A DNA stretch of 64,000 nt from Actinomycetes bacterium (GTDB taxonomy: Bacteria > Planctomycetota > Phycisphaerae > JAACET01): contig JAUXAG010000011.1 in the NCBI GenBank assembly GCA_030614915.1, positions 26,516 through 90,515 on the forward strand, written 5' to 3'. A program made the position numbers and the translations under genes. The notes under the pieces were generated by a model. That model had not been told where the DNA came from, did no database searches, and saw nothing but the letters and a program-made list of their open reading frames with translations. Position 1 is the first letter of the stretch, and each line of letters begins with the position of its first letter. Of this stretch, positions 143 to 61,285 are shown one piece after another.

Positions 143-1333
143 ATGAAGAACGAGTTGACCTACGCCCTGATAACCCCCTATTCGATTGTCAAGAGCCGGA
201 CCGGCGGTATCATTGGACGGCTGCTACGCTTGAGCAATCTCGAGCTCGTCGGAGCCCGCATGTATGTCTTCTCCGACGACTTCGTCGATACCTATGCTCG
301 CGACTTGCGGGGAACTACCGCTGATCCTGCCCTGGGCCAGGGATGGTTCGATTACATCAAGGAGAACTTCAGTCGCGGCAACCGCTTCGGCATCTTGCCC
401 CGCTGTATGCTCTTGTTGTTCCGTGGAGACGATGCTCGTCGGCATCTCAAGGACGAGGTCATCGGTTCTTTCACCCGCACACCGGTGGGCGATACTCTGC
501 GGGGAACCTATGGCGATTTGGTCTTTGATGTCTGGGGCAATGTGGACTATTTCGAGCCGGCGGCGATTAGCGCTCCCAACGACGAAGCCAATAACAGGCA
601 CTTGGCCCTGTTCGCCAAGTACGCCATGAGCGACGGCGGCCTCCTGGAAGACCAACTCACCTTTCCCGATGGCCAAAACATCGAGACTTCCCTGGTCCTG
701 CTCAAGCCGGACAACTTCGAGCGCCCCAGCGGCCAGGCCGGAAATATCATCGATGTCTTCAGCCGCACCGGCTTATTCATGGCCGGGGCAGAGGTCGTCA
801 GTATGACCGCCGGACAGGGCATCGAGTTCTACGGGCACCTCCGTGAGCTTTTCGTAGATAGACTCAAAGGATCAGTCAAGAGCCGACTCGATGAGGCCCT
901 TTCCAACACTTTTAATTTTCAAATCAGTGATGAAATCTATGAGCAGATGGCCGATGAGCTCAGGCAGCTAAATGCCCAGCACGAGTTTGAGCGCATCGTC
1001 CATTACATGACCGGCGTGGACCTTAACGAAATTACCGATCCTCAGCAGCGGCAGAGAACCTCGCACACCAAGTGCCTGGCCATCCTCTATCGTGGACCGG
1101 ATGCCATAACCAAGATTCGCACTTGGCTCGGAGCCACTAATCCCAGCGAAGCCATGCCTGGCACTGCCCGTTCGGAATTCGCTCAGGACCTCATGCGCAA
1201 CGGCGCCCACGCCTCCGATTCGCCGCAAAGCGCCATGCGCGAAAGGCAGATACTCGCTCTGGACAAGGAACGCTCGGATACTTGCCGGGTTAAGCAGATG
1301 ATCGAGGAGTATCTCGCTTCAGTGGCCAAATAG
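143..1333 (+). CDS. Tandem nucleoside-diphosphate-kinase-like domain protein. N-terminal NDK-like domain appears degenerate; C-terminal NDK domain keeps the GxTNP...PGTxR...NxxHxSDS motif.
   Basis: Protein has ELTYALITPYS...GRLL (NDK N-terminal motif) and later ETSLVLLKPDNFERP...GATNPSEAMPGTARSEFA...NGAHASDSPQSAMRE matching the NDK catalytic region. The AAGGTG SD lies 6 nt upstream of ATG 143; the ORF-track start at 101 is an upstream Met. Confidence 0.6.
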   Translation: MKNELTYALITPYSIVKSRTGGIIGRLLRLSNLELVGARMYVFSDDFVDTYARDLRGTTADPALGQGWFDYIKENFSRGNRFGILPRCMLLLFRGDDARRHLKDEVIGSFTRTPVGDTLRGTYGDLVFDVWGNVDYFEPAAISAPNDEANNRHLALFAKYAMSDGGLLEDQLTFPDGQNIETSLVLLKPDNFERPSGQAGNIIDVFSRTGLFMAGAEVVSMTAGQGIEFYGHLRELFVDRLKGSVKSRLDEALSNTFNFQISDEIYEQMADELRQLNAQHEFERIVHYMTGVDLNEITDPQQRQRTSHTKCLAILYRGPDAITKIRTWLGATNPSEAMPGTARSEFAQDLMRNGAHASDSPQSAMRERQILALDKERSDTCRVKQMIEEYLASVAK

Positions 1334-10448: not shown

Positions 10449-11870
10449 TTGCCGGACCTTGTTATGCTGCGTCACTTCGAACTCTTCTTGGCCTGTCGCT
10501 ACTTGAAGAAGAAACGGCTGGCCTTTTTCTCCATCGCCGCCGTCGCTTTATCCGTTGCCATGCTCATCGTGGTCTCCAGCGTAACCGGCGGCTTCGTGAA
10601 GCAGTACCGCGTTGCCTGCCACAGCTCTTATGGCGACATTATCATCAGTGCCGACAGTTTGATGGGCTTTCCTTACTACGATGAACTTGTCACTCAGGCC
10701 CGCAAGCTCGACGGTCTCCGGGAGGCTACTGCCGTCATCAAGCTCCCCGGCCTTCTACGCATTGACCAGCCCGGAAGATTCAAGCTCTTCGTCAAGGGCG
10801 TTCAAGTTCTGGGCATCGAACCCAAAAGCTATTCACAAATCACCAACTTCAAAGCCGGGCTTTGGAAGCAATCCAAACTGGATGCTCCGCCCAGCCTGGC
10901 CCTTCCCGATAAGCTTCCCGACAATCCCTATCTCAAGGGAGTCAAACTCAGGGGGGCCTGCATCGTCGGCGTGGAGGTCGTCTGCAACCGTTCCTCCGAT
11001 GCCAGCTATCACCGCAAAAAAGATTTATACAACTCGCCGGTCATTATCAGCGTCATGGCCCTCAAACGCACTGGCCTGATCGACGTCGATGCGACCGTCA
11101 GATATCCCTTCCTGCTCATCGACGACTTCGAAGCCTCTGTCCCCCTGATCACAGAACCGACTGTCTACATTCCTTTTGCCTTGGCCCAGAAAATGTCCCG
11201 GATGCTCGAATATCACGACGACGATGCCGCACGCACCAAACCAGCTCGGGCCTCCCAAGTCCAGATCCTCGCCGAGCCCGACGCAGACCTGCAGGAACTT
11301 AAAAAACGTCTGCGGGAGATCTGGGATAAAATCGCCTGGGACAACGCCTATCTCGGCGGGGCAATGGTCTTCGAAACCTGGGACGAGCAGGAGGGCATTG
11401 CCAGTTTCATTGCCCAGTTTGAGCGGGAACGCACTCTAATGACCATTCTTTTTGGCATTATGGGAGTAGTGAGTGTATTCCTTATCTTTTGTATCTTTTT
11501 CGTGATCGTCACCGAGAAGATTCCGGACATCGGCATCATCAAGAGCGTGGGCGGCTCCAGTGCGGCAGTGGGGCGCATCTTCTTCGTCTATGCCGGGGCC
11601 GTCGGAGTGGTCGGCGCCTTTCTGGGCTTGGCCATGGGTTGGCCGTTTGTGGTACACATTAATGCTATTCACGACTGGGTGGCCCAAACCTTTGACTGGA
11701 GAGTTTATGATGCCGCCGTTTTGCTCTTTCCCTACATTCCCAACGAGGTGGATTGGTATGCTACTACGATTATTATGATTGCCGCCCTCGTGGGATCTCT
11801 GATTGGTTCAATGATCCCCGCTGCTCGGGCGGCCCTGATGAAGCCGATACAGGCCTTGCGCTATGAATAA
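10449..11870 (+). CDS. ABC transporter permease, FtsX/LolC-LolE family
   Basis: N-terminal TM, large periplasmic loop, C-terminal three TMs. Overlaps the downstream ATPase gene. Confidence 0.8.
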   Translation: MPDLVMLRHFELFLACRYLKKKRLAFFSIAAVALSVAMLIVVSSVTGGFVKQYRVACHSSYGDIIISADSLMGFPYYDELVTQARKLDGLREATAVIKLPGLLRIDQPGRFKLFVKGVQVLGIEPKSYSQITNFKAGLWKQSKLDAPPSLALPDKLPDNPYLKGVKLRGACIVGVEVVCNRSSDASYHRKKDLYNSPVIISVMALKRTGLIDVDATVRYPFLLIDDFEASVPLITEPTVYIPFALAQKMSRMLEYHDDDAARTKPARASQVQILAEPDADLQELKKRLREIWDKIAWDNAYLGGAMVFETWDEQEGIASFIAQFERERTLMTILFGIMGVVSVFLIFCIFFVIVTEKIPDIGIIKSVGGSSAAVGRIFFVYAGAVGVVGAFLGLAMGWPFVVHINAIHDWVAQTFDWRVYDAAVLLFPYIPNEVDWYATTIIMIAALVGSLIGSMIPAARAALMKPIQALRYE

Positions 11871-19169: not shown

Positions 19170-20198
19170 ATGAAATGTAAGCGTATCTTTTCGATAATGC
19201 TGGCTCTGCTGATCTTCGGATTCCTGGCCGGCAATTCAGCCCACGCTACCACCTGGACCGTCACCCAACTGACCAACAACAGCTACGGCGACGAATATAC
19301 CCGGATCTACGGCTCCAACGTGGTCTGGTGGGGCTACGACGGCAGCGACAGAGAGATATTCCTCTACGACGCCAACACCACTATCACCACCCAAATCACC
19401 AACAACAGCTACGTCGACAAGGGTCCCCAGGTCTACGGCTCCAACGTGGTCTGGTTCAGCTACGACGGCTACGACAGCAGCACCAGAGAGATATTCCTCT
19501 ACGACGGCAACGGCACCACCCAACTGACCAACAACAGCTACAGCGACGAGTATCCCAAGATCTACGGCTCCAACGTGGTCTGGTACGGCTACGACGGCAG
19601 CGACAACGAGATCTTCCTCTACGACGGCAGCGGCACTACTCAACTGACCAACGACAGCTACGACGACTACAATCCCCAGATCTACGGCTCCAACGTGGTC
19701 TGGTACGGCTCCGACGGCAACGACTATGAGATATTCCTCTACGACGGCAATACCACGGTCACCACCCAAATCACCGACAACAGCTACAGCGACGAGTATC
19801 CCAAGATCTACGGCTCCAACGTGGTCTGGTACGGCTACGACGGCAGCGATTATGAGATCTTCCTCTACGACACCAACACCACGCTCACCACCCAACTGAC
19901 CAACGACAGCTACGACGACTACAATCCCCAGATCTACGGCTCCAACGTGGTCTGGCGGGGCTCCGACGGCAGCGACTATGAAATCTTCTTCTACGACGGC
20001 AACACCACCACCCAACTGACCAACAACAGCTACTACGACAGTTCTCCCCAGATCTACGGCTCCAACGTGGTCTGGTACGGCAACGGCCCTGACGGCAGCG
20101 ACTCTGAGATCTTCCTGGCAACCCCCGAACCCGCCACCCTGGCCCTGCTGCTTCTGGGCGGCTTGCTCCTGCTGGATCGCAGGCACAGATCGGCCTGA
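19170..20198 (+). CDS. PEP-CTERM-anchored PD40 (TolB-like WD40-like) beta-propeller repeat protein, 8 repeats
   Basis: Signal peptide; 8 x 40-aa repeats (TQLTNNSY.DEYP.IYGSNVVWYGYDGSD.EIFLYDGN) resembling PD40. C-terminal PEPATLALLLLGGLLLL-DRRHR exosortase sorting signal. ATG at 19170 with purine-rich SD preferred over the ORF-track start 19110. Confidence 0.75.
   Translation: MKCKRIFSIMLALLIFGFLAGNSAHATTWTVTQLTNNSYGDEYTRIYGSNVVWWGYDGSDREIFLYDANTTITTQITNNSYVDKGPQVYGSNVVWFSYDGYDSSTREIFLYDGNGTTQLTNNSYSDEYPKIYGSNVVWYGYDGSDNEIFLYDGSGTTQLTNDSYDDYNPQIYGSNVVWYGSDGNDYEIFLYDGNTTVTTQITDNSYSDEYPKIYGSNVVWYGYDGSDYEIFLYDTNTTLTTQLTNDSYDDYNPQIYGSNVVWRGSDGSDYEIFFYDGNTTTQLTNNSYYDSSPQIYGSNVVWYGNGPDGSDSEIFLATPEPATLALLLLGGLLLLDRRHRSA
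19260..20110 (+). repeat. Eight tandem ~120-bp coding repeats with near-identical DNA cores
   Basis: tctacggctccaacgtggtctggtacggctacgacggcagcgac recurs at 120-bp spacing. Confidence 0.8.
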
Positions 20199-40259: not shown

Positions 40260-42077
40260 TCAAAACGGCAGTTTCGCCCTTGGAAAACTAATCTCCTCGC
40301 CAACGGCCGGCGGAACGAACGGCTCGAAATGATCGTCCTTCCATCTTAGCCAGCGCAATGAAGGGTCTTCCAAAGAAACCCCAAACCGGAAACTAGCCTC
40401 CATTACTCGGCCATCATCGCTCAATTCCGTTACTTCAACAGTCATCCCGCTTAGCTCGATCCGTTCGCCCAGGGCCAGGGGGTGATCTGTACTTCGGAAC
40501 ATTTTATCGAACCACCGCCCTAAATATCCCCTCTTCAGACGTACAAGCAGTGTTTGGGCGTCTGGCCGACGGATTGTCTGTCTGGATAAAGCCGATGCAA
40601 GGGTCCTCATTCGGCGAGGAAGCGGTTGTTCGTTCACCGCTCTGGCGCTCAACATGTACAGCAGATGGCCGGGCGCAGGATGGTTCAGAAAAATCAGGTC
40701 CTGTTTCTCAATCGAAGAATCCATCTTGCCGAGCCCATGACAACTCTCCAGGAAGTACTGCGGGCCCATCGGCCACTTCGCACGCACATACAGCAGTACC
40801 GGCGAGCCCAGCACGTGGATTACTACAAGTACTATCGCCAGCAGGACCGTCGGGACCCGTCGGCTCAGTGCGTAATTATCCCGCAGCTGCACGCTTTTAA
40901 ACACCCAGCTCAGATACTCGCTCAGCAAGCCCATCGCACCGATACCGACGAAGAAGAGCTGCCGATCCTGCGGACTGCTCGCACATGGGGCAATGCTGGC
41001 CAGGATCATTCCCAACACCCAGAAACGAGCTACTCGGCTTGCCTTGAGCAGAGGACGAAACAGCACTGCCAATAGTACTAGTACCATCACGCCGATTAGC
41101 CAAACCCAGTGCAGGTTCTGCGGAGAAAAAATACTGAATTCCCCCGGAGGAATTGCCCACTGTCCCAGCAGCAAAATCGGCACGCGCACAGGCAGCACAA
41201 ACAAGAAGCCAAGCGGATCCGCCAGCGGATCCGTATAGATGCCCACCCCTTCGACCCCGTAGCCTTGGTACCACCAGAGTACTCGCCAGACACACACCAC
41301 CAGCACATACGGCATCAGCCCCTTGAGTCTTTGCCCGGCAGGCCCACGATCCAGCACAAGCGCATAACCCAGCAGATAGGCGCAAATGCCGATACCGGCC
41401 TCAGCCGACAGCAAACTCATGCCTAAAAGAATCGGCCCCAACGCCGCACCGGCTCGCCAATTATCTCGCCGCCAGCGATCCTGAGCGAGCAGGGCAAGAA
41501 CCCCAAACAACGTGGCCAATAGTGCGTTGCGGTTAGCCAAAAAACCCACCGCCGTGCCGTGCGAATCATCAAGGGCGTAGAGCAGCCCCGCCAATCCAGC
41601 TGCCGCAGCCACGCCCATGAATCGCCGGTATAGCACTGTTGTGCAGCCTATCAGTGCTCCAAACCATAGCAGGCTCTGAGCGTGCATCAGTCCCGCCCGA
41701 TTAGGCCAGAGCCAATAGTCCAACACATGTGTCATAGCAGCCAAGGGCCGCCAGAATGCCCATCGAATTTTCGGATACGTCCACCACGGAATCCAGCCGG
41801 CGTCCATCATCCGTTCGGTCCGTGCTGCATCCCCATCGAAGAATCGCCATATATCCGGCGGGACGGGTAGCAGCTCACCATACTCGCTCGAACCCATCAT
41901 CGCCCAGCGTTGCAGGTGATCTTCCAGGATCCACCCCACCCCCAGCGACGGCAGGGCAAGGCCCATTGCCAGTATTGCCAGTACAATCGGCAAATACCGC
42001 CAAGTCAACACCGCATCCAGCAACCCCGCCAGACCACCGTCAAGCCCTGTTGCCTGAACCTCTGCCTTCATTTGCAT
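40260..42077 (-). CDS. Polytopic membrane protein (>=10 TM) with C-terminal soluble domain; possible GT-C-fold glycosyltransferase; paralogue A
   Basis: About 50-55% identical to the adjacent gene. Conserved YA(L/I)DD(S/A)HG acidic motif in the first predicted extracytoplasmic loop, as in GT-C enzymes. Family not identified. Confidence 0.55.
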   Translation of the reverse strand: MQMKAEVQATGLDGGLAGLLDAVLTWRYLPIVLAILAMGLALPSLGVGWILEDHLQRWAMMGSSEYGELLPVPPDIWRFFDGDAARTERMMDAGWIPWWTYPKIRWAFWRPLAAMTHVLDYWLWPNRAGLMHAQSLLWFGALIGCTTVLYRRFMGVAAAAGLAGLLYALDDSHGTAVGFLANRNALLATLFGVLALLAQDRWRRDNWRAGAALGPILLGMSLLSAEAGIGICAYLLGYALVLDRGPAGQRLKGLMPYVLVVCVWRVLWWYQGYGVEGVGIYTDPLADPLGFLFVLPVRVPILLLGQWAIPPGEFSIFSPQNLHWVWLIGVMVLVLLAVLFRPLLKASRVARFWVLGMILASIAPCASSPQDRQLFFVGIGAMGLLSEYLSWVFKSVQLRDNYALSRRVPTVLLAIVLVVIHVLGSPVLLYVRAKWPMGPQYFLESCHGLGKMDSSIEKQDLIFLNHPAPGHLLYMLSARAVNEQPLPRRMRTLASALSRQTIRRPDAQTLLVRLKRGYLGRWFDKMFRSTDHPLALGERIELSGMTVEVTELSDDGRVMEASFRFGVSLEDPSLRWLRWKDDHFEPFVPPAVGEEISFPRAKLPF

Positions 42078-42133: not shown

Positions 42134-43951
42134 TCAGTGCTGAAGCTCTATCGTTTCTCCAATGGCCGGTGGGACGAATGGCTTGAACTGGTGATCCTCC
42201 CAGTAGATCCAGCGCAACGAAGAATCTTCTAAAGGAACCGCAAATCGAAAGGTAGCCTCCGCCGGTCGGCCATCATCCGTCAATTCTGTTACCGTAACGG
42301 TCATCCCTGTCAGTTTGACCTGCTCTCCCAGGGCCATGGGGTGGTTTTTGCCTCGGAAGAGTTGGTCGCACCAGCCTAGATATCCGCCTAGATATCCGTA
42401 TTTGGGACGGATGGTGAGTGTTTGGACATCAGGACGGTGTATTAGCACTGATGGTATCGCTGGGGCGAGAACTCTCATATGGCGTGGCACCGGCTGGTCA
42501 TTCAACTCCCTCATGCAAAGCAGAAAAATAGTGGCTAACGCTGCGGGCTGATTGACGATGACCACGTCCTGCTCTTCAACCGCCCCACCGGCCATGCACT
42601 GAGCGTAGTAATCTTTATCAGGAGTCCATGGACCAAAAGAGTACGCTGCGCGAAGTGGCAGAAGAATTGGGGCCGCGATCATATGAACAAGCACCAGGAC
42701 TAGTGCAAAGGAGACAGTAGCGAAACGCCGAATTAGATTACGTGGCTTGAGAGCTGATGCGCCAAACAGATCGGCCAATAATTGTGCCAGTAATCCCATC
42801 GCCCCGATGCCCACGAAGAACAGAAGACGATCCCAGGCCAACGTCGCGCAGGCAGGAACCACAGCCAGTAGCATTGCCAATGCCCAAAAGCGTGCCAGCC
42901 GACTGCGTCGAAGTAAGGGGACTAATATGGTGCCGATCAACAGGACAATAGCCAGAGCATACAACCACATAGTCGTTGCGTGTCTGGATGTGAGAGTTAT
43001 TAGACTGCCGATTTCCGCGGGAGGCAAAAACCATTGGCCCATCAACAGAAGAGGAGCATATTTGAGAGCTGATCCTGCAAAACGGGTTGGGTCATTTATG
43101 GGATCGATATACCAGCCCATACCCTCGACGCCATAACCCAATTGTGTCCAGCTAATCCGCCAGACGAGGACAACGGCAACGTACGGGACCAGCGTTGCTA
43201 ATCGCCGGCTCCAAGAGCCGCGATCCAGAATAAGCGCATAAGCCACCAAGTACGCGCAGATTCCAACGCCGATTTCAGCCGAGAGCAGGGCTGCCGTCAG
43301 AAGAATTGGGCCCAGAATCGCACCGGCTCGCCAACCGTCCCGCCGCCATCGATCGTGAGCGACCAGGGCAAGAACCCCAAACAACGTGGCCAATACTGCG
43401 TTGCGATTGGCCAAGAAACCTACCGGGATGCCATGGGCGTCATCAATGGCGTAGAGAAGCCCCGCTAATCCCGCTATCCATGTGAAACCCATAAATCTTC
43501 GATACAACAACGCCACAGCCGTTACCAGTAGACCGAACCACACAATGCTTTGAGCATGCATCAAAGCAGGGCTCTCAGGCCAAATTTGGTAGTCCAGCCA
43601 GTGAGTTATCGCTGTCAAAGGACGCCAGAATGCTCCTTTTATCTCTTTGAAAGTCCACCAGGGCAGGAAGCCGTGGTCCATCATATGAGCAGTATGTTCT
43701 GGATTACCGTCAATGAATCGAAAGATGTCCAGGGGGGAGTGTACAAACTCGCTGACGCTGCCCCCGCCAAGTATTACGCTACGATGGAGATAGTCGTCCA
43801 TGAACCACCCCACATTCAGCGACGGAAGGACAAGGGCCATCGCCAGTATGGCCAGCCCAATCGGCAAATACCGCCAAGTCAACACCGCGCGCAAAAACCT
43901 CGCCAGAGCACCGCTAGGCCCCGTTTTCTGAACGTCTGCTCTCATTTGCAT
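42134..43951 (-). CDS. Polytopic membrane protein, paralogue B of 40260..42077
   Basis: Same length (605 aa); collinear N-termini MQMRADVQKTG / MQMKAEVQATG. Confidence 0.55.
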   Translation of the reverse strand: MQMRADVQKTGPSGALARFLRAVLTWRYLPIGLAILAMALVLPSLNVGWFMDDYLHRSVILGGGSVSEFVHSPLDIFRFIDGNPEHTAHMMDHGFLPWWTFKEIKGAFWRPLTAITHWLDYQIWPESPALMHAQSIVWFGLLVTAVALLYRRFMGFTWIAGLAGLLYAIDDAHGIPVGFLANRNAVLATLFGVLALVAHDRWRRDGWRAGAILGPILLTAALLSAEIGVGICAYLVAYALILDRGSWSRRLATLVPYVAVVLVWRISWTQLGYGVEGMGWYIDPINDPTRFAGSALKYAPLLLMGQWFLPPAEIGSLITLTSRHATTMWLYALAIVLLIGTILVPLLRRSRLARFWALAMLLAVVPACATLAWDRLLFFVGIGAMGLLAQLLADLFGASALKPRNLIRRFATVSFALVLVLVHMIAAPILLPLRAAYSFGPWTPDKDYYAQCMAGGAVEEQDVVIVNQPAALATIFLLCMRELNDQPVPRHMRVLAPAIPSVLIHRPDVQTLTIRPKYGYLGGYLGWCDQLFRGKNHPMALGEQVKLTGMTVTVTELTDDGRPAEATFRFAVPLEDSSLRWIYWEDHQFKPFVPPAIGETIELQH

Positions 43952-56094: not shown

Positions 56095-56211
56095 GAGCAA
56101 AAACCTTCAATTTTCAAGACTGACTTGATATCATACTAGAAATGAGCCTTAGCGGCGTAGCTAAGCAAGGATATATGTTACATGGAAAATCCCAGCTAAG
56201 GAGTCTTGAAA

Positions 56212-58035
56212 ATGACAAGGACACATGAACAGCGCAATAGGAAAGGTTCATGGACCAAAACCCTCGCGATTCTGGTCTTCGGTTGCTTGCTGATTCCGCC
56301 CGTCGCCGCGTCTGCCGAATCCGTTCTGCAGGGGGGACCCCATTCCAGCCTCCAAGTCGAGCCAACATTCAAATTTGTCGTTATCGGGGATACCCGCACG
56401 GGGGTCTCTGTGTTTGAGCGATGCATAGCTGAAATCAATCTCCTGGCCCCCGACCTGGTGTTGGACGTTGGAGATCTAATCCCGGGCTACAGGGAAGATA
56501 TACGACAAATCATAGCTATGTGGGATGAATTTGACGAAAGAGTCAAGAGATTCCGGGTACCCTTTGTAATGGTAGCCGGTAACCACGATATCTGGGGGCG
56601 AGACTCCAGGAAGATTTACGAGCAGCGCTACGGCAAAACCTACTTTTCGTTTGATCATAAAGGTGTACATTTTGTTGTGCTAGACTCAGAGGCCTTCGAT
56701 GATAACGACAATATTCTTAATCGCATAGATGAGGAACAACTCAAGTGGCTGCAAAACGACTTGGCTTTACACCACAACGCCCGGCTGACGTTTGTTTTCC
56801 TTCATAAACCCTTCTGGCAAGGCCCGCGCTTTGATCAAGACGCTATAGAACACTGGTTCAAACGTGTCCATCCCATCCTTGCAAAGCATGGCGTTTCTGC
56901 CGTATTCGCCGGCCACTACCACATTTATGCGAAATTCCCTCCAGTCGACGGCGTGCATTACTATATAACCGGCGGTGGCGGCGCAGGGATTGGACCGGAT
57001 CCCACCATGGGTGATTTTCACCATTATTGTTTGCTGACCGTAAGTGGCAACGATTGGAAACTCGCCGTTATTAAACTTGGCTCGATCGAACCCGACATAA
57101 TCGTAACGGCTGATCCTGATCTTCAGGCACTAAGAGACAGTGTGACTGTCCCTGAAATCGTAGTTCCCGAATCCGCCGGTACTCTACCCATTGAGCTAAC
57201 CTTTGCTAATAGGAAGCCAAGAAGTCTCGATATAACGGTACGACCGAGCGACAGCCCTTCCTCACACTTTCGCATCACTCCGGATCACCTGACGGCCTCT
57301 GCAAAGGGCAACGAGGAGGTACATTTCAAATTCACGACCGCCATCGATCCTGAACATGCCTACCCCGTGCCGCAGTTCACTTTTGAAGTACGCGACCAAG
57401 GCAAGAAACCCCTACTATTTACCTGCGCAGTTCCCGTCAAAGCACATCGTACGACGACTTGTCGCAAAACATTGGCCCCGCCGCATGTCGACGGCAAGCT
57501 TGATGACACCGCCTGGGCAACCACTGCGCCCCTCTCAGCCTTCTTCACCCCACGTGGCGATCGCGAGACCAGCTTTCCCACCCAGGTTCAGTCAAGCTAC
57601 GACTCTAACAATCTCTACCTCGCTTTCCGTTGCCAGGAACCTAATCTTGCAGGTCTGGTCACCAAGGTCTCATCCCGCGACGGCCCGGTTTGGGCGGATG
57701 ACTCAGTCGAAATCTTCATCGACACCAATCTCGACCGCAAAACCTATTACCAGTTCGCGTTCAATGCCAAGGGTGTTGCCTACGACAGCTCGGGTACGGA
57801 TGAAAGGTGGAATGGCCAACATGAAGTAAGAGCCAGCCGCACAGCGGATGCATGGACCCTGGAGGTCGCCATCCCCTGGCGGACAATTGGCCTGAAAGCT
57901 CCAGAACCAGGCACAAAACTGGGCCTGGAAATTGTCCGAAACCGTGCACAAGGCCCCCCCGAGCTCACGCAGTGGTCCCCGACCTTTGCTTCAAACCACG
58001 TTCCCACGCAATTCGGAACGATGATTTTCAAGTAA
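56212..58035 (+). CDS. Secreted calcineurin-like metallophosphoesterase with C-terminal CBM9-like carbohydrate-binding domain
   Basis: Signal peptide. VIGDTRTG...GDLI...GNHD...GHYH metallophosphatase motifs. C-terminal DGKLDDTAWATTAPLSAFF....SNNLYLAFRCQEP typical of CBM9. AAGGAG SD 8 nt upstream of ATG 56212; the ORF-track start is TTG 56206. Confidence 0.75.
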   Translation: MTRTHEQRNRKGSWTKTLAILVFGCLLIPPVAASAESVLQGGPHSSLQVEPTFKFVVIGDTRTGVSVFERCIAEINLLAPDLVLDVGDLIPGYREDIRQIIAMWDEFDERVKRFRVPFVMVAGNHDIWGRDSRKIYEQRYGKTYFSFDHKGVHFVVLDSEAFDDNDNILNRIDEEQLKWLQNDLALHHNARLTFVFLHKPFWQGPRFDQDAIEHWFKRVHPILAKHGVSAVFAGHYHIYAKFPPVDGVHYYITGGGGAGIGPDPTMGDFHHYCLLTVSGNDWKLAVIKLGSIEPDIIVTADPDLQALRDSVTVPEIVVPESAGTLPIELTFANRKPRSLDITVRPSDSPSSHFRITPDHLTASAKGNEEVHFKFTTAIDPEHAYPVPQFTFEVRDQGKKPLLFTCAVPVKAHRTTTCRKTLAPPHVDGKLDDTAWATTAPLSAFFTPRGDRETSFPTQVQSSYDSNNLYLAFRCQEPNLAGLVTKVSSRDGPVWADDSVEIFIDTNLDRKTYYQFAFNAKGVAYDSSGTDERWNGQHEVRASRTADAWTLEVAIPWRTIGLKAPEPGTKLGLEIVRNRAQGPPELTQWSPTFASNHVPTQFGTMIFK

Positions 58036-58123
58036 CTAGAAGTCATCCCAAAACCTGCTTTCGCAGCAGAAATTGGGGGTTTGGGACGGCTTCTAAGTGC
58101 TTTCTTGTTAATCAACTCACTTC

Positions 58124-58185
58124 CTCAGGCTCGGCCCGTGGAAGGCGAAGCTGGCGGGGGGTAGAATGTAGGGCGTGGCACAGTT
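58124..58185. repeat. Left imperfect direct repeat flanking the lower-GC islet (core AGGCGAAGSTGGCGGGG..TAGAAT.TAG)
   Basis: ctcaggctcggcccgtggaaggcgaagctggcggggggtagaatgtagggcgtggcacag pairs with ctcaggccccctggcaggcgaaggtggcggggcatagaatctagccctacagacacc at 60353-60407. Confidence 0.45.
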
Positions 58186-58244
58186 ATAGTGCTGGCTGAG
58201 CTTGGTACATAAAATGGGGGACAGGTCAATACGGAGAATAGATT

Positions 58245-58751
58245 ATGGTATTTGCAAAGAACAGATCGAGGAAAGCAAAATGGGTAATTGTTCCGGTCAC
58301 TGTTCTGGTATTTGTTCTGTTTGTTGGGGTGGGGCTGGGTTTGGTGCATTATATTGGCCATCGGGGCCTTCGCGAGATGAACAGCCTGGGTGGCATGACA
58401 TGTGCCATTGGCGCCTATATTTGCACGCACGAAGGTGCCTTTCCCGGGTCTTTTCAGGATCTGGTGGACTCAGATATAGTCAGGCCCAAAGGTGAAGGCT
58501 GGTTCTATGCGTGGAAAGGGGCAATGGTAAATTTGCCTGACTTAGATGCGCACTATTATGATGGACCGCGATTTCGGCCTGAGAATATAATTGTGGCGTG
58601 GGGATACGAATACCGTGAAGCGGATACCATGCCGCTTGTGATCCATAAGAAAATTCGTGTCACAGGTGAGGGGATGGCGATGACTAGTACAAAAAGGTTG
58701 CGTAGCTTTATGAAGCAATATAGGAAAGATAAAAAGCTTCGGCCAGAATAG
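58245..58751 (+). CDS. Small N-terminally membrane-anchored protein (168 aa), copy 1 of a tandem pair
   Basis: Basic N-terminus + TM (KWVIVPVTVLVFVLFVGVGLGLV), then soluble domain. About 85% identical to 58990..59499. No family recognised. Confidence 0.6.
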   Translation: MVFAKNRSRKAKWVIVPVTVLVFVLFVGVGLGLVHYIGHRGLREMNSLGGMTCAIGAYICTHEGAFPGSFQDLVDSDIVRPKGEGWFYAWKGAMVNLPDLDAHYYDGPRFRPENIIVAWGYEYREADTMPLVIHKKIRVTGEGMAMTSTKRLRSFMKQYRKDKKLRPE

Positions 58752-58989
58752 GCTATTACTTCCTGCGCTGGTGCACAGCGGTGAGCGAACCTGCACTCTA
58801 CATGTTCGAAATGCAGGCAAGTTAGTTGGCCCATTTGATTTCAACACTATGAGTGGTGTAGTGGGCCTGGTGAATCTCGACAGAGCTAATCCTCCATGGT
58901 ATATTCTTAAGGTCCAGGATTGCTGGTGGTATGTACGAAAGGTAAAAAGCTATATAAAAGATTCTGGACCCTACTACGGAAAATAGATT

Positions 58990-59499
58990 ATGGCACTTGC
59001 AAAGAACAGATCGAGGAAAGCAAAATGGGTAATTGTTCCGGTCACTGTTCTGGTATTTGTTCTGTTTGTTTGGGTGTGTCTGGGTTTGGTGCATTATTGT
59101 GGCCATTGGGGCTTTCGCGAGTCCCAAGGCATGATTGGTATGACAAATGCAATTGGCGTCTATATTTGCACGCACGAAGGTGCCTTTCCCGGGTCTTTTC
59201 AGGATCTGGTGGACTCAGATATAGTCAGGCCCAAAGGCGAAGGCTGGTTCTATACGTGGCGAGGCGCAATGGGAAATTTGCCTGAAGCACATGGGCACTG
59301 GCTCTCTGATGGACCGCGATTTCGGCCTGAAAATATGATTGTGGCGTGGGGATACGAATACCGTGAAGCGGATACCATGCCGCTTATGATCCATAAGAAA
59401 ATTCGTGTCACAGGTGAGGGGATGGCGATGACTAGTACAAAAATGTTGCGTCGCTATATGAAGCAATATAAGAAAAATAAAAAGCTTCGGCCAGAATAG
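58990..59499 (+). CDS. Small membrane-anchored protein (169 aa), copy 2 of the tandem pair
   Basis: About 85% identical to copy 1. Confidence 0.6.
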   Translation: MALAKNRSRKAKWVIVPVTVLVFVLFVWVCLGLVHYCGHWGFRESQGMIGMTNAIGVYICTHEGAFPGSFQDLVDSDIVRPKGEGWFYTWRGAMGNLPEAHGHWLSDGPRFRPENMIVAWGYEYREADTMPLMIHKKIRVTGEGMAMTSTKMLRRYMKQYKKNKKLRPE

Positions 59500-59640
59500 A
59501 CCATTACTTGCTGTGCTGGTGCACAGCGGCGAGCGAACCTGCACTCTACATGTTCGAAATGCAGGCAAGGCTTAGTGGTTCATGACACTAGATTCTTGAA
59601 TAGACGGAACTCTGCCTAACGCACTGACATAGAGAGGATT

Positions 59641-60216
59641 ATGCCGATAGAAGTCACAAATTTCAAAAGTCATGAACCACTAATCAGGGATGATAATATG
59701 AGCGAACAAGGTCGTCCTATGCGCGTAACCCTTATCGGCCTGGCCTGGGTCATTCTTGGCGGGGTCATGTGTTTTACCGCACTCCGAGCTCTCCTTCTCT
59801 CCGCTTTGACTCAATCACAGGCACGGACTTATTGGGGAATATCAGAAGTCTTCGAGTTCGTCCCCGCGTTCCTTCCGTTTCGGCTGGCCAGTGGTTTTGG
59901 TTTCTCCCCTGTGCTCCTTCCGATTCAGCTGGGCATTGGTATCCTTGGCGTAAACTCCGGTGCCAATTTTCTGAAACTCAAGAAACGGGCCCGCAACGTT
60001 CTGGAAGTCTTGACGTGGCTACTTCTCATTTTCGTCGTCGCTCATAGTATCTTTTGGACCTCTAGCTACTTGTCCGATATTCCGCGATACGAATCTCCGG
60101 TATTCGCTGTCATGGGCATAGTTATGGGTCTATTGGGCATTGTAATCTATGGAGTCCCCCTTGGAATCATGGTTATGTACCTAAGGGGGAATAAAGTCCG
60201 GGACGCAATGCAATGA
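59641..60216 (+). CDS. Hypothetical 4-TM membrane protein on the lower-GC islet
   Basis: Four hydrophobic helices; start could instead be MSEQGRPM at 59698. Confidence 0.5.
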   Translation: MPIEVTNFKSHEPLIRDDNMSEQGRPMRVTLIGLAWVILGGVMCFTALRALLLSALTQSQARTYWGISEVFEFVPAFLPFRLASGFGFSPVLLPIQLGIGILGVNSGANFLKLKKRARNVLEVLTWLLLIFVVAHSIFWTSSYLSDIPRYESPVFAVMGIVMGLLGIVIYGVPLGIMVMYLRGNKVRDAMQ

Positions 60217-60352
60217 TCGGCTATGCTGGATTAACGGGCGGACAAGCCTCTTGAGAGTAAGGGTTTTAGAGAATTAGGTTCATAAATATATTCTTGCGGA
60301 AGAAGAAACAATGTCTTTTTCTCCCGCCAAAAAAACAGCCCTCCCCCACTGT

Positions 60353-60407
60353 CTCAGGCCCCCTGGCAGGCGAAGGTGGCGGGGCATAGAATCTAGCCCT
60401 ACAGACA
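60353..60407. repeat. Right imperfect direct repeat flanking the lower-GC islet
   Basis: See the left repeat at 58124-58185. Confidence 0.45.
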
Positions 60408-60427
60408 CCATCTAGCTTTTGTGAGTT

Positions 60428-61156
60428 TTAGCTGGTTTTTTCTTGGGCGTTTTCTTCGGCAGTGTCGCAGGGACCGTCATCCTCAGCCGCGAGAATCTCT
60501 TCAGTCGGCTCGTCCTCTTTGGGCGCACTTTCTGTTTGTGGACGAAGCTCCGCGACCTTGGGCAAATCCAGCAGGCTGTTGAGCCCAAAAACCTCCAGGA
60601 ATTTTCGCGTCGTGCTGTAGAGCAACGGTCTGCCAAGCTCCTGGGCTCGGCCGACGATCTTGACCAACCCTTTTTCCATCAGGTTGCGCATCATGTCGCC
60701 CGCGGCCACTCCGCGGATGGCCTCCACCGTTACCCGCATGACCGGCTGCTTGTAAGCCACGATGGCCAGCGTCTCCAGCGCAGCCTGTGAGAGCTTGCTT
60801 TCCTGCCGGGTTCGTAGCAGCTGTTTGAGCCAATCGTTGTATTCCGGCAGAGTTAGCATTACATACCCCCCGGCGATTTGCTCGATGTGATAAGCCGAGC
60901 CTCGCTTACTGTACTCGCTGTTGAGTTCCTCGATCAGCTTGCGGACTTGCTTCGCATTACCCGCACCGGCTACCTTGGCGATCTTGGAAGCCTCCAACGG
61001 CTCATCGCTGGCAAAGAGGATCGCTTCAACCACCGATCGCAGCGTTATTTCCTGCTGCAGATCGTCGGCCACCAATTCGACCTCAGCCCGTTCAAGACCT
61101 GCTTCGGTTATGCCTTCTGTGCTCTGGTCCTGCTGTGTATCCTGTTCCTGACTCAT
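60428..61156 (-). CDS. scpB: Segregation and condensation protein B
   Basis: SVVEAILFASDEPL and LSQAALETLAIVAYKQPVMRVTVEAIRGV winged-helix ScpB signatures. Confidence 0.85.
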   Translation of the reverse strand: MSQEQDTQQDQSTEGITEAGLERAEVELVADDLQQEITLRSVVEAILFASDEPLEASKIAKVAGAGNAKQVRKLIEELNSEYSKRGSAYHIEQIAGGYVMLTLPEYNDWLKQLLRTRQESKLSQAALETLAIVAYKQPVMRVTVEAIRGVAAGDMMRNLMEKGLVKIVGRAQELGRPLLYSTTRKFLEVFGLNSLLDLPKVAELRPQTESAPKEDEPTEEILAAEDDGPCDTAEENAQEKTS

Positions 61157-61285
61157 ACCGTCTAGCTTACCCTTTCAGAGCTCTTTCGTCCACCACAAAT
61201 TCCATTTTTGAATTTCCACAGGATGCTACGCATTGATTTGTCATTTCCGAAGGACGCTTCGCGTTGATTTTTGCATTTTGCTCTT

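Follow-up and report, generated by a model that had tools for sequence, protein, structure and literature searches.

A strain-variable slot beside scpB in marine Phycisphaerae-like planctomycetes holds small cassettes bordered by a recurrent G-rich motif

The low-GC islet beside scpB in the 64-kb stretch of DNA analyzed here (the window) is real, and it is the second of the two cassettes that occupy a slot flanked by core genes, one encoding a TPR-like membrane protein and the other ScpB. The host lineage of this slot is that of uncultured marine Phycisphaerae-like planctomycetes. We put at roughly 55% the probability that the space between the two genes is a strain-variable cassette slot in which a co-oriented array is built by att-type recombination, with the enzyme acting in trans.

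Composition and layout of the slot

The GC content is 0.485 over 58124-60407 versus a window mean of 0.566, making this the lowest 2.3-kb stretch in the window and bearing out the drop to about 48% reported in a first-pass annotation of the same DNA. GC3 is 0.48 to 0.55 in the three islet genes versus 0.64 to 0.69 in neighboring core genes, and GC skew is positive in the islet and negative elsewhere in the window, including both sides of the islet, with no sign switch of the terminus type. The islet is compositionally foreign. The other cassette, which holds a metallophosphoesterase gene (MPE-CBM9; Pfam Metallophos and CBM9_1), has a GC content of 0.52.

The left anchor of the slot gave TPR and YfiO matches below the Pfam threshold and none above it; the gene is syntenic in L002, L052, and L102, with 78 to 87% nucleotide identity. 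The product of the right anchor matched Pfam SMC_ScpB (E = 3.8e-56), and scpB served as the anchor for finding related loci. All of these comparators lie on short metagenome contigs, and three of them (L049, L100, and L103) end inside the array.

Table 1. Features of the slot and its two anchors, in window coordinates
Feature	Coordinates	Strand	Description
TPR-like membrane protein gene, 713 aa	53953..56094	+	ORF; core gene, left anchor of the variable slot
Hairpin GCCTTAGC-GGCGTA-GCTAAGC	56146..56166	+	3' flank of the TPR gene; from sequence
Cassette 1, secreted MPE-CBM9 gene and flanks	56153..58117	+	Gene 56206-58035; metallophosphoesterase (MPE)
Left junction-motif copy	58118..58171	+	Profile score, 44.9 bits
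Tandem copy 1	58230..58824	+	Ribosome-binding region, gene 58245-58751 (168 aa), 3' hairpin region
Nonduplicated spacer	58825..58974	+	Final 57 nt (58918-58974) are the upstream region of copy 2
Tandem copy 2	58975..59570	+	169-aa paralogue gene 58990-59499, 3' hairpin region
Perfect 15-nt inverted repeat enclosing 82 nt	59572..59683	.	Arms 59572-59586 and 59669-59683
4-TM membrane protein gene	59641..60216	+	Longest ORF, 191 aa
Left extension of right motif copy	60282..60346	+	C-rich arm AGCC.TCCCC.C.G.TCTCAGGCCCC
Right junction-motif copy	60347..60396	+	Profile score, 50.3 bits
scpB	60428..61156	-	Right anchor of the slot; core gene transcribed towards the cassettes

Empty sites and alternative cargo in related loci

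Comparison of the scpB-side region among relatives, which had been proposed with the original annotation, turned up both empty sites and alternative cargo. In three to four related metagenome contigs, the TPR gene and scpB are convergent, with one copy of the junction motif between them. In L052, the 3' flank of the TPR gene (equivalent to window position 56152) is joined to the motif and, about 20 nt later, to scpB, and L050, L105, and L051 look like this empty site; each of these four loci has a single motif copy, versus two in the window, L049, and L103. The direct convergence of the two genes in relatives shows the whole of 56153-60361, MPE-CBM9 included, to be insertion; it measures 4.2 kb, with the 2.3-kb islet as the second of its two cassettes. 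The first-pass view of an integrative islet or recombination-prone locus held with respect to foreign composition, absence from the closest relative, and proneness to recombination, but not with respect to the extent of the inserted DNA.

On the left, relatives whose slot is empty or holds other genes lose homology to the window at 56152/56153, within the hairpin that follows the TPR gene: blastn alignments to L002, L052, and L102 end at 56152, and the homology to the MPE region of L101 begins at 56153. On the right, homology ends at 60342-60362 for L049, L050, L051, L052, L103, and L105, at 60376 for L002, and at 60426 for L101. Overall, these end points are graded across relatives (60282 to 60426), with no one sharp crossover.

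The closest relative, L101 (95% ScpB identity), has the MPE-CBM9 gene and lacks the islet. Its MPE-CBM9 gene (L101 4154-2271, 95.7% identical to that of the window) lies between an upstream motif copy and scpB, 210 bp from scpB, and the gene is absent in L052, L050, L051, and L002. Other cargo at the site consists of two PEP-CTERM genes (L002), a 149-aa lipoprotein-like gene (L049), a 170-aa 2-TM gene (L103), a 112-aa membrane gene (L053 and L054), a 564-aa gene (L102), and tandem copies of the 168-aa family found in the islet, with no 4-TM gene (L100). At least six gene contents are found at the slot among about a dozen relatives, and the cargo types are PEP-CTERM, lipoprotein-like, and multi-TM proteins and a secreted CBM9 enzyme.

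A single cassette gene is bracketed by motif copies in three further lineages. The flanking copies are identical at 43/47 positions in L049 and at 24/32 in L103; in L053 and L054, the distal copy scored 22 and 19 bits with a motif profile that was not trained on them, and a degenerate half-site lies at scpB. The cassette genes of the window, L049, L103, and L053/L054 all point towards scpB, and L049 and L053 have a further co-oriented ORF upstream of the distal copy. To call the window's insertion a decayed integrative islet undersells this pattern; the same element brackets different single genes elsewhere, and the locus looks like a cassette array.

Sequence and specificity of the junction motif

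The imperfect direct repeats of about 55 bp first described as flanking the islet are present: the best local alignment, of 58118-58171 with 60347-60396, has 42 of 54 columns identical and one 4-nt gap. A 28-nt motif core, allowing up to 3 mismatches, occurs at only these two places in the 64 kb and was found 0 times in 100 shuffles. With a profile built from 12 copies in 9 loci, the best score in the window after these two copies was 11.6 bits, and a search of 19 related loci (84 kb) found copies only beside scpB. The motif is present at this locus in the window and 13 related loci, where it coincides with cassette borders, and it recurs at such borders in at least four genomes. Within the window and these loci, this distribution speaks against the concern, raised with the original annotation, that the repeats belong to a genome-wide family unrelated to insertion boundaries; an interspersed repeat of the REP/MITE type was rejected on the same counts.

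The element is 45 to 70 nt long and G-rich, with the core GGCCCC.TGG[A/C]AGGCGAAG[C/G]TGGCGGGG..(T/G)AGAAT. It is not palindromic and has no dyad symmetry. Single-stranded DNA folds of 8 copies had z-scores from -2.5 to +1.4, and the only common stem was a 4-5-bp CCCC/GGGG clamp. A motif with neither dyad symmetry nor a significant fold is unlike most characterized recombinase sites. A 21-base version of the core had 0 matches in a set of 185,579 species-representative genomes that does not include the source genome, and the one match in IMG/VR, inside a coding region with unrelated flanks, was judged to be due to chance. We also considered two other readings of the motif: a sigma-54 promoter was ruled out on spacing, and a small ORF was rejected because the reading frames differ between copies.

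The two copies in the window have hybrid arms. The left copy joins a native-type left arm, TGGAAGGCGAAG, to a cassette-type right arm, TAGAATGTAGGG, with a -10-like TAGAAT located 78 nt ahead of the start codon of tandem copy 1; the right copy joins a cassette-type left arm, TGGCAGGCGAAG, to a native-type right arm, GAATCTAGCCCTACAGACACC, that is continuous with the 3' flank of scpB. The TGGAAGGCGAAG signature is read in all empty sites and in the left copy of the window. TGGC(A/C/-)G is read in scpB-proximal copies at occupied sites (the right copy of the window, L049, L103, L100, and L104) and also in the single copy of L101, upstream of MPE-CBM9. Full TGGC(A/C/-)G copies span two scpB clades, and L002, where the motif is a degenerate remnant only (GGCCAGCG), would make a third. 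At their ends, all distal copies read AATGT.GG, versus AATCTGG in native and proximal copies. The C-rich arm to the left of the right copy is common to cassette-side arms of other lineages, and the blastn alignment to L104 begins at its first position, 60282. These signatures fit attL/attR hybrids of a host and an element arm but are partly confounded with scpB phylogeny: every slot is occupied in the clade of the window, L101, L103, and L049, and independence of the left-arm signature rests on L104 and L002. Recombination between a site on the chromosome and one on a cassette would be expected to give such hybrid arms.

The motif as such is native to the scpB flank. It is conserved downstream of scpB in relatives with an empty site and is kept down to 77% scpB nucleotide identity (L102) amid otherwise unalignable spacer DNA. 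The right half of the right repeat is likewise native scpB-downstream sequence, and that repeat did not come with the islet alone. The left copy matches the orthologous site of L051 at 38/43 positions, versus 42/54 for its own partner; the window copies resemble each other no more than they resemble their orthologues elsewhere and are not a fresh target-site duplication.

How the slot may have been filled

No integrase, transposase, or recombinase was found in the islet or the rest of the slot or among 20 further window ORFs scanned with Pfam, which extends the first-pass finding for the islet. The islet proteins had no recombinase-family match in Pfam, NCBIfam, PHROGs, or PADLOC; no circular or free cassette was seen; and ARAGORN detected no tRNA or tmRNA in the 64-kb window.

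In the reading that we favor, the ancestral empty state would be one element copy beside the scpB stop codon. A cassette would be a short DNA that ends in its own version of the element and carries between one and three genes, all in one orientation, whose products are small membrane or exported proteins. A recombinase encoded elsewhere would insert it through a reciprocal, site-specific exchange of the att type between the resident element and the one on the cassette, and a hybrid copy would be left on either side each time. Repeated insertion would yield a co-oriented array of units, each made of gene(s) plus element, and the window would hold two of these: MPE-CBM9 with the left copy and the islet with the right copy. 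Where an element copy precedes a cassette, it contains a -10-like box (TAGAAT, TATAGT, or TTGAAT), and such a copy may be the promoter of that cassette. The tandem duplication of the 595-bp block within the islet would be a separate event, due to unequal crossing-over or to gene conversion. The window has no motif ahead of its MPE-CBM9 gene or between the three islet genes, and L101 has none from MPE-CBM9 to scpB; with the motif missing at expected sites, secondary deletions must be assumed if the slot is an array of cassettes. The motif model also leaves one arrangement unexplained: in L001, a gene of the 168-aa family is bracketed by a 52-nt repeat (45/52 identical) that is unrelated in sequence to the scpB motif and corresponds to the 3' coding end of the host ACR3 arsenite-efflux gene. 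A 10-nt similarity between the reverse complement of this repeat and the motif core is weak and consistent with chance (estimated p of about 0.09).

Rather unlikely, in our judgment, is a replacement-type flexible islet, whose content strains exchange as a whole through homologous recombination in the core genes on either side, the TPR gene and scpB. In that case, the motif would be a regulatory module (a promoter or an scpB 3' element) that travels with the genes or is duplicated by unequal crossing-over, and it would coincide with the borders as the sole shared homology in the slot. Its layout is indeed promoter-like (TGG[A/C]AG, 17 nt, TAGAAT), the right copy was flagged by a promoter scan, and the -10-like box is kept upstream of cassettes (TAGAAT, TAGAAT, TATAGT, and TTGAAT) and degenerate beside scpB (GGGAAT and GAGAAT). 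The graded homology end points, the lack of a recombinase in the slot and the 20 further ORFs, and the lack of a motif hairpin would also suit replacement, and replacement islands that homologous recombination maintains have been described in aquatic prokaryotes (PMC4033161). However, both flanks of the distal copies are nonhomologous between genomes, leaving only 45-55 nt for a crossover, and replacement does not predict arms that are consistently native on the left and cassette type on the right, and the reverse. In addition, the putative promoter would fire antisense into scpB in an empty site, and the persistence of the element in the unalignable spacer of L102 is likewise at odds with this explanation.

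We regard as improbable that the repeats are long target-site duplications, made when breaks staggered by about 50 nt at the 3' end of a convergent gene were gap repaired and the copies later diverged. The L001 arrangement, in which a gene of the same family sits inside a duplicated ACR3 3' end, is what such a process would leave, and the left cassette border there is exactly the border of tandem copy 2 in the window. Moreover, both copies in a genome have a genome-specific left extension in common (CACT..CTCAGGC in the window, GCGTCTCGGCCCCGT in L049, and TTGT.TC.T.CC in L103). Yet the window copies differ at 12/54 columns, while scpB is only about 6% diverged from that of the islet-less L101, and the left copy is nearer to the orthologous site of L051 than to its own partner. 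Drift would not repeatedly produce the AATGT shared by distal copies or the C-type left arm shared by proximal ones. Terminal inverted repeats and a transposase are also lacking, and no transposition system is known to make 45-55-bp duplications.

An assembly artefact, in which strain variants of one locus were concatenated into apparent repeats and an apparent tandem duplicate, is very improbable: although the window and all comparators are metagenome assemblies, several contigs end inside the array, and the exact window proteins occur on no other contig of the searched index, the repeats are imperfect (78-91% identical) and so are not k-mer overlaps, both tandem copies keep intact and differently diverged reading frames, and the motif-cassette-motif order recurs in four independent assemblies from different samples, with a fifth (L100) placing tandem copies by the motif and scpB.

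Comparison with known systems

A transposon or insertion sequence would carry inverted repeats at its ends, encode a transposase, and be flanked by a short target duplication (2-15 bp). We found no terminal inverted repeats in 57900-60600 and no transposase, and the repeats are about 50 nt long and only 78% identical; the islet is not assigned to this class.

The slot more closely recalls an island bounded by att sites, in that its direct repeats correspond to a chromosomal site that is present once in empty-site relatives. In tycheposon-seeded islands of Prochlorococcus, an attachment motif of about 40 nt lies on both sides, one host- and one element-derived; each new integration at that site displaces earlier elements towards the interior; the island is strewn with degraded remnants and additional partial sites; and cargo differs between closely related marine strains (bioRxiv 10.1101/2020.12.28.424599). 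The scpB slot likewise occurs empty or with other cargo in relatives and has repeated motif copies, with arms that look hybrid. Unlike those islands, its target is the 3' flank of scpB and not a tRNA or tmRNA gene (neither ARAGORN nor Rfam found a tRNA/tmRNA 3' end to serve as target in the 64-kb window), its units are single small genes of 0.6-2.2 kb, and there is no integrase, integrase remnant, or replication module in or near the array.

Resemblance to integrons and CALIN arrays (PMC4889954) lies in the co-oriented short ORFs with unassigned functions, each followed by a lineage-specific repeat (MPE-CBM9 plus site and islet plus site in the window; L049, L103, and L053/L054). A further likeness is that sites are more alike within one genome than across genomes; the array has no adjacent recombinase, as in CALIN, and its first site may supply a promoter, as in an integron. 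The differences concern the site itself and the size of the array. The scpB motif is G-rich and lacks an R''/R' pair, dyad symmetry, and a better-than-shuffled fold: a search for R'' (RYYYAAC) and R' (GTTRRRY) 35-130 nt apart gave 0 pairs on both strands of 58036-60430, with one R''-like and no R'-like heptamer, and the attC hairpin was rejected for want of a fold common to the 8 copies. The arrays are tiny (one or two sites), and some units are multigene with their own promoters. A complete integron was rejected as well, with no intI integrase match in the slot or the 20 further window ORFs.

IMEX/dif modules are integrated DNA without a recombinase of their own, with a short host site repeated in direct orientation at both ends, as in the scpB slot. 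They use a host enzyme in trans and accumulate tandem and successive insertions, to which the slot may be likened if an enzyme acts on it in the same manner. The motif differs in lacking the 11-6-11 dyad-symmetric dif architecture, and the locus is not at a GC-skew switch; a Xer/dif element was rejected on these grounds.

Finally, flexible islands of aquatic bacteria that encode envelope or surface variation (PMC4033161; PMC4898812) occupy a conserved place between core genes and have strain-specific content and low GC, as the slot does. All slot cargo seen is membrane bound or exported. The islands described there span tens of kilobases, in contrast to one to three genes in the scpB slot, which also differs from them in having a discrete repeated junction element.

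It is conceivable, though we hold it doubtful, that the slot represents an undescribed, integron-analogous cassette-capture system of Phycisphaerae, with a 55-70-nt G-rich, dyad-less site by scpB, a recombinase from elsewhere in the genome, a site that doubles as the promoter of the next cassette, and fast-evolving small envelope proteins as cargo. If the motif is a recombination site, the locus would be a compact and tractable case of single envelope-gene shuffling in uncultured marine planctomycetes, without linked integrases, transposases, or tRNA targets. Its 50-nt handle could be searched for in genomes and reads to find excision junctions, and the recombinase could be sought by co-occurrence; a site type that is not attC, dif, or tRNA would extend the small set of cassette-style systems for gene capture. 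Even on a conservative reading, the slot documents fine-scale strain variation in membrane and exported proteins at one conserved locus.

The duplicated orphan gene and its neighbors

Within the islet, 58230-58529 and 58975-59274 are 90% identical, and 58559-58821 and 59307-59569 are 95% identical. The duplication in tandem is as first described, with head-to-tail block copies and both reading frames intact; the 745 bp given for the unit is instead the period (745-748 bp), and the duplicated block measures about 595 bp (58230-58824 and 58975-59570), with about 150 bp between the copies (58825-58974) outside the duplication. The end of this spacer (58918-58974) is common to the homologous gene of L001 (L001 267 corresponds to window 58918). 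The 168-aa and 169-aa proteins are 82% identical, slightly below the 85% originally estimated. A hairpin does follow each gene copy, but it folds no better than shuffled sequence and has no T-run.

The tandem arrangement also occurs outside this genome. Copies are about 92% identical within a genome versus about 80% between genomes, a pattern consistent with either lineage-specific duplication or gene conversion. In L100, an independent assembly, tandem copies of the family adjoin the same motif and scpB, so the arrangement is unlikely to be an assembly artefact. The dN/dS between copies 1 and 2 is about 1.5, and they diverge chiefly through amino acid replacements within two exposed patches.

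The duplicated protein is a fast-evolving, membrane-anchored orphan. Its lack of a recognizable family, noted at first pass, extends to Pfam, NCBIfam, PHROGs, and PADLOC and to the PDB, where no sequence match was significant. The 168-aa protein has one hydrophobic segment (residues ~9-40), and its AlphaFold2 model (pLDDT of 79) has a small sheet after a long, hydrophobic N-terminal helix; Foldseek found no match to the model in the PDB or BFVD. The family has only 5 close members among 5.8 billion proteins and no relatives in JGI metagenome contigs or IMG/VR, and a deep profile search gave about 10 remote relatives, all small, membrane anchored, and unannotated. Matches to giant RCC1-repeat proteins were spurious, via a "VAWG" motif. 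Evolution of an orphan membrane-anchored family at a dN/dS of 1 or more is typical of functions that face phages or the environment, and a role of this kind, envelope or phage related, may apply here.

The helix and small sheet resemble type II secretion pseudopilins of the GspG fold, and the protein has the pattern Y-I-x-x-x-x-G-x-F-P-x-S-F-x-x-L. Unlike GspG, it lacks a prepilin cleavage/methylation signal, and its N terminus, MVFAKNRSRKAKW, is without a G-F-T-L-I-E type motif. With no T2SSG match in Pfam or NCBIfam and no prepilin motif, assignment as a GspG-like pseudopilin was rejected.

The 4-TM gene follows the duplication, as originally noted (ORF 59641-60216). Its protein is 172 aa in the NCBI source record, which fits a start at ATG 59698, and Pfam gave only a below-threshold DctQ match. 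Homologues occur in unrelated contexts; in L100, which lacks this gene, the duplicated gene abuts the motif. The 15-nt inverted repeat lies directly upstream of the likely start. It is not conserved at homologous genes elsewhere, and its match to an Rfam miRNA model, the only Rfam match, was attributed to chance. The fold of the repeat has a z-score of only -1.5, and a promoter-like site lies inside it on the minus strand.

Slot content beside scpB

The islet is the second of two cassettes that precede scpB in the window; the first carries a gene for a secreted metallophosphoesterase-CBM9 protein (MPE-CBM9). We found the low GC content and the flanking imperfect direct repeats that the first-pass annotation had reported: GC content averages 48.5% in the islet and 56.6% over the whole window, making the islet the window's lowest-GC stretch of that size, and the repeats are identical at 42 of 54 columns with one 4-nt gap. 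A 28-nt core of the repeat occurs at only two places in the 64 kb at ≤3 mismatches, and at none in 100 shuffles. Third-position GC is 0.48 to 0.55 in the islet genes versus 0.64 to 0.69 in neighboring core genes, and GC skew is positive in the islet and uniformly negative across the rest of the window. The 4-TM gene described after the duplicated genes is present, the islet proteins have no match in Pfam, NCBIfam, PHROGs, or PADLOC, in line with the absence of a recognizable family, and no transposase was found, nor any recombinase in the slot or among 20 other window open reading frames (ORFs) scanned. The first-pass observation held; its interpretation as a decayed or miniature integrative islet or recombination-prone locus was only partly supported.

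Using ScpB as the anchor, we fetched related loci (designated L numbers) from species-representative genomes, JGI metagenomes, and ENA assemblies. NCBI names the ScpB of the nearest metagenome-assembled genome Phycisphaerae, and the next relatives are Sedimentisphaerales. The "Actinomycetes bacterium" label of one locus (L002, DAOVKO010000012.1) is probably wrong, because NCBI assigns its ScpB to Phycisphaerae and its neighbors are all planctomycetes.

The gene for a TPR-like membrane protein and scpB are conserved and convergent, and the space between them is a hypervariable slot (see the table). Since relatives have empty sites, the window's slot content, including MPE-CBM9, is an insertion relative to the empty-site lineages. 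All cargo genes seen in the slot, in the window and in relatives, encode membrane or exported proteins. We are confident that the site is an insertion slot that varies among strains and has its borders at the junction element described below.

Features of the window and of related loci
Locus	Position	Strand	ScpB identity	Feature
Window	56153-60361			Insertion vs. empty-site lineages, 4.2 kb
Window	58118-58171			Junction element, left copy
Window	58124-60407			Islet
Window	58125-58430, 58542-58847, 58822-59175, 59215-59568	minus		Antisense ORFs
Window	58230-58529 / 58975-59274			Duplicated blocks, 90% identical
Window	58559-58821 / 59307-59569			Duplicated blocks, 95% identical
Window	58825-58974			Spacer, not duplicated
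Window	59572-59586 / 59669-59683			Inverted repeat
Window	59641-60216			4-TM ORF
Window	60347-60396			Junction element, right copy
Window	61204-61278			31-nt tandem repeat, 2.4 copies
Window	19263-20134			5-7 in-frame tandem repeats of 120-135 nt
Window	40260-42077 / 42134-43951	minus		Adjacent 605-aa ORFs
Window	10245, 25538, 37047, 37220			Hairpin element TTTAGCCCCCAGGTTTATCCTGGGGG, intergenic
Window	25480, 36963, 37094, 37162			Dispersed family with GGACGCTACGC
L001	213-264 / 871-919			52-nt imperfect repeat
L001	173-517, 557-877			Antisense ORFs
L099	921-1748			4-TM homologue upstream of TIR-domain gene
L102	~10760-10800			Hairpin element adjoining scpB motif
L052			86% aa	Slot empty: window-56152 equivalent, ~20 nt, window-60362 equivalent (motif, scpB)
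L050, L105, L051			87-89% aa	Slot empty, arranged as L052
L101			95% aa, 94% nt	Closest relative; MPE-CBM9 210 bp from scpB; islet absent; one motif copy, upstream of MPE-CBM9
L002			91% aa	Two PEP-CTERM genes
L049			93% aa	149-aa lipoprotein-like gene
L103			91% aa	170-aa 2-TM gene
L053, L054			82-85% aa	112-aa membrane protein gene
L102			81% aa	564-aa gene
L100			scpB 3' region 90% nt	Tandem 168-aa-family copies abut motif; 4-TM gene absent

A junction element brackets the cassettes

The flanking repeat is a junction element that is not private to the islet. Its right copy is native scpB-downstream sequence, as homology with six relatives crosses it and stops at 60342-60362. The cargo genes of L049 and L103 are each flanked by two copies (43/47 identical in L049). 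L053 and L054 each have a distal copy upstream of the cargo gene, plus a degenerate half-site joined directly to the scpB stop; the distal copies score 22 and 19 bits with a profile not trained on them. L049 and L053 carry more co-oriented ORFs upstream of the distal copy. Together, the bracketing copies and these upstream ORFs indicate a layout of repeated (gene[s] + element) units with all genes directed toward scpB. Of the two units in the window, that of MPE-CBM9 ends with the left copy and that of the islet with the right copy.

Profile searches recovered only two copies in the window (50.3 and 44.9 bits; next best, 11.6) and, in the related loci, copies beside scpB only. In the sequence searched, the element is therefore not a dispersed repeat family of the kind that the first-pass annotation had raised as a counter-explanation. 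The window does hold several other dispersed families.

Known site types were rejected. There are no integron attC R''/R' core pairs anywhere in 58036-60430 and the element lacks a hairpin; a dif/Xer site is excluded by arms without dyad symmetry and by the lack of a GC-skew switch, a tRNA-end att site by the absence of any tRNA or tmRNA from the window, and an insertion sequence or transposon by the lack of terminal inverted repeats and transposase and by repeats that are far too long. The element has no significant fold, and Rfam returned nothing relevant.

Proposed att-type recombination and its rivals

In the best-supported account, to which we assign a probability of roughly 55%, att-type recombination in trans has built a small array of co-oriented cassettes at a conserved attachment element near scpB. 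A chromosomal site B-O-B' would recombine with a cassette-borne site P-O-P' to give B-O-P' and P-O-B', with the crossover somewhere within AGGCGAAG.TGGCGGGG. The arms show the pattern expected of such a reaction, falling into two types on each side. The left arm TGGAAGGCGAAG is found at every empty site and in the window left copy, and the left arm TGGC(A/C/-)G is found in proximal copies (those beside scpB) at occupied sites (window right copy, L049, L103, L100, and L104) and in the single copy of L101; L002 retains only a degenerate left-arm remnant (GGCCAGCG). A C-rich extension, AGCC.TCCCC...GTCTC.GGCCCC, precedes the TGGC(A/C/-)G-type copies and is common across lineages. The right arm AATGT.GG ends all copies upstream of a cassette (window left copy and the distal copies of L049, L103, L053, and L054), and AATCTGGCCCTACAG continues all native and proximal copies. 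In the scpB tree, every locus in the clade formed by the window, L101, L103, and L049 is occupied, which partly confounds the left-arm signature with descent; only L104 and L002 break this confounding.

This account has further weak points. Homology end points with relatives are graded, not sharp, and element copies are expected but missing in the window, both upstream of MPE-CBM9 and between the islet genes, and in L101 between MPE-CBM9 and scpB. The negative recombinase scan and the element's lack of dyad symmetry and of a significant fold also weigh against it. Such an array would fall among known categories, as a variant of att-flanked islets and of integron-like arrays.

A rival reading is that the element is a regulatory module and that homologous recombination reshuffles the slot. 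Its main support is a promoter-like layout: TGG[A/C]AG and TAGAAT, 17 nt apart, resemble a sigma-70-type promoter, a promoter scan flagged the right copy, and the -10-like box is well preserved where a copy precedes a cassette (TAGAAT, TAGAAT, TATAGT, and TTGAAT) and degenerate in copies beside scpB (GGGAAT and GAGAAT). The TAGAAT of the window left copy lies at 58162-58167. This layout is equally compatible with a recombination site that also supplies a promoter, and a predicted promoter may be a second role of the element.

The sole observation favoring a sequence-independent, target-duplicating mechanism comes from L001, a TARA scaffold on which a 168-aa-family gene sits elsewhere, inserted in the 3' end of a convergent ACR3 arsenite-efflux gene and adjoining arsC and arsR. 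The gene is bracketed by a repeat (45/52 identical) of the ACR3 3' coding end; because this duplicates C-terminal coding sequence, ACR3 keeps most of its C terminus. The repeat differs in sequence from that at scpB, and the left cassette border corresponds exactly to that of window copy 2 (L001 267 = window 58918). The motif model leaves this bracketing unaccounted for. A fresh target-site duplication is an unlikely source of the two window repeats, which differ at 12 of 54 columns whereas scpB differs by only ~6% from that of islet-less L101, and the left copy is nearer the site of L051 (38/43) than its own partner.

The duplicated gene family

The islet does contain a tandem gene duplication, but the duplicated block is ~595 bp with a period of 745 to 748 bp, not a 745-bp unit, and a spacer of ~150 bp separates the copies. 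The 168-aa and 169-aa proteins are 82% identical, slightly below the ~85% first given. The family is tiny: a search of 5.8 billion proteins gave five close members, namely both window copies and three marine metagenome sequences, and there are none in JGI metagenome contigs or IMG/VR. An HMM scan that covered 1.8 billion representatives in full yielded ~10 remote, unannotated small proteins of the same build; its RCC1-repeat matches were spurious. The protein has a basic N terminus followed by one N-terminal hydrophobic segment, and the AF2 model (pLDDT 79) consists of a long helix (residues 3 to 61), a small sheet, and a basic C-terminal helix. PDB and BFVD gave no fold or sequence match, and a resemblance to pseudopilins did not extend to family membership.

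Between the window copies, dS is 0.07, dN is 0.11, and dN/dS is 1.5, numbers too small for significance; across genomes, dN/dS is 0.7 to 1.1. Changes cluster in codons 31 to 60 and 91 to 115, and the blocks between these patches are almost invariant, silent sites included. The pattern is consistent with exposed patches under diversifying or relaxed selection, perhaps along with gene conversion. Copies are ~92% identical within a genome versus ~80% between genomes, and L100 likewise has tandem copies; thus, the duplication is lineage specific or homogenized, not a one-off event here. In every locus, long antisense ORFs (~100 to 117 aa) remain uninterrupted on the strand opposite the family genes. 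These and the silent-site invariance are probably by-products of composition or gene conversion; opposite-strand constraint is possible.

The 4-TM gene

At 172 aa, the NCBI copy of the 4-TM protein is consistent with a start at 59698. A perfect 15-nt inverted repeat enclosing 82 nt stops 15 nt before this likely start and contains a promoter-like TTGAAA-17-CATAAT facing away from the gene, a predicted layout reminiscent of an invertible promoter switch set to "off." The repeat could instead be a plain 5'-untranslated-region stem, with a fold z-score of only -1.5. It is not conserved at the homologous 4-TM genes of L098 and L099. PADLOC gave no match for the window protein; in L099, the homologue directly precedes a CAP12/PCTIR-type TIR-domain gene, a hint of a defense-related context for the family.

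Other repeats and duplicates

The intergenic hairpin element TTTAGCCCCCAGGTTTATCCTGGGGG is dispersed in the window and directly adjoins the scpB motif in L102. Further short intergenic repeat families include octamer runs of CTGTCATCCCCGCGCAGGCGGGG and CTTTGTGCCT. A 31-nt tandem repeat between scpB and rnfD has the word GGACGCTACGC in common with a dispersed family. Tandem repeats (GGCTACGACGGCAGCGAC...TTCCTCTACGACG...) sit within a 362-aa ORF with no Pfam match, and a second tandem gene duplicate, the 605-aa ORF pair, shows 73 to 80% nucleotide identity over several blocks.
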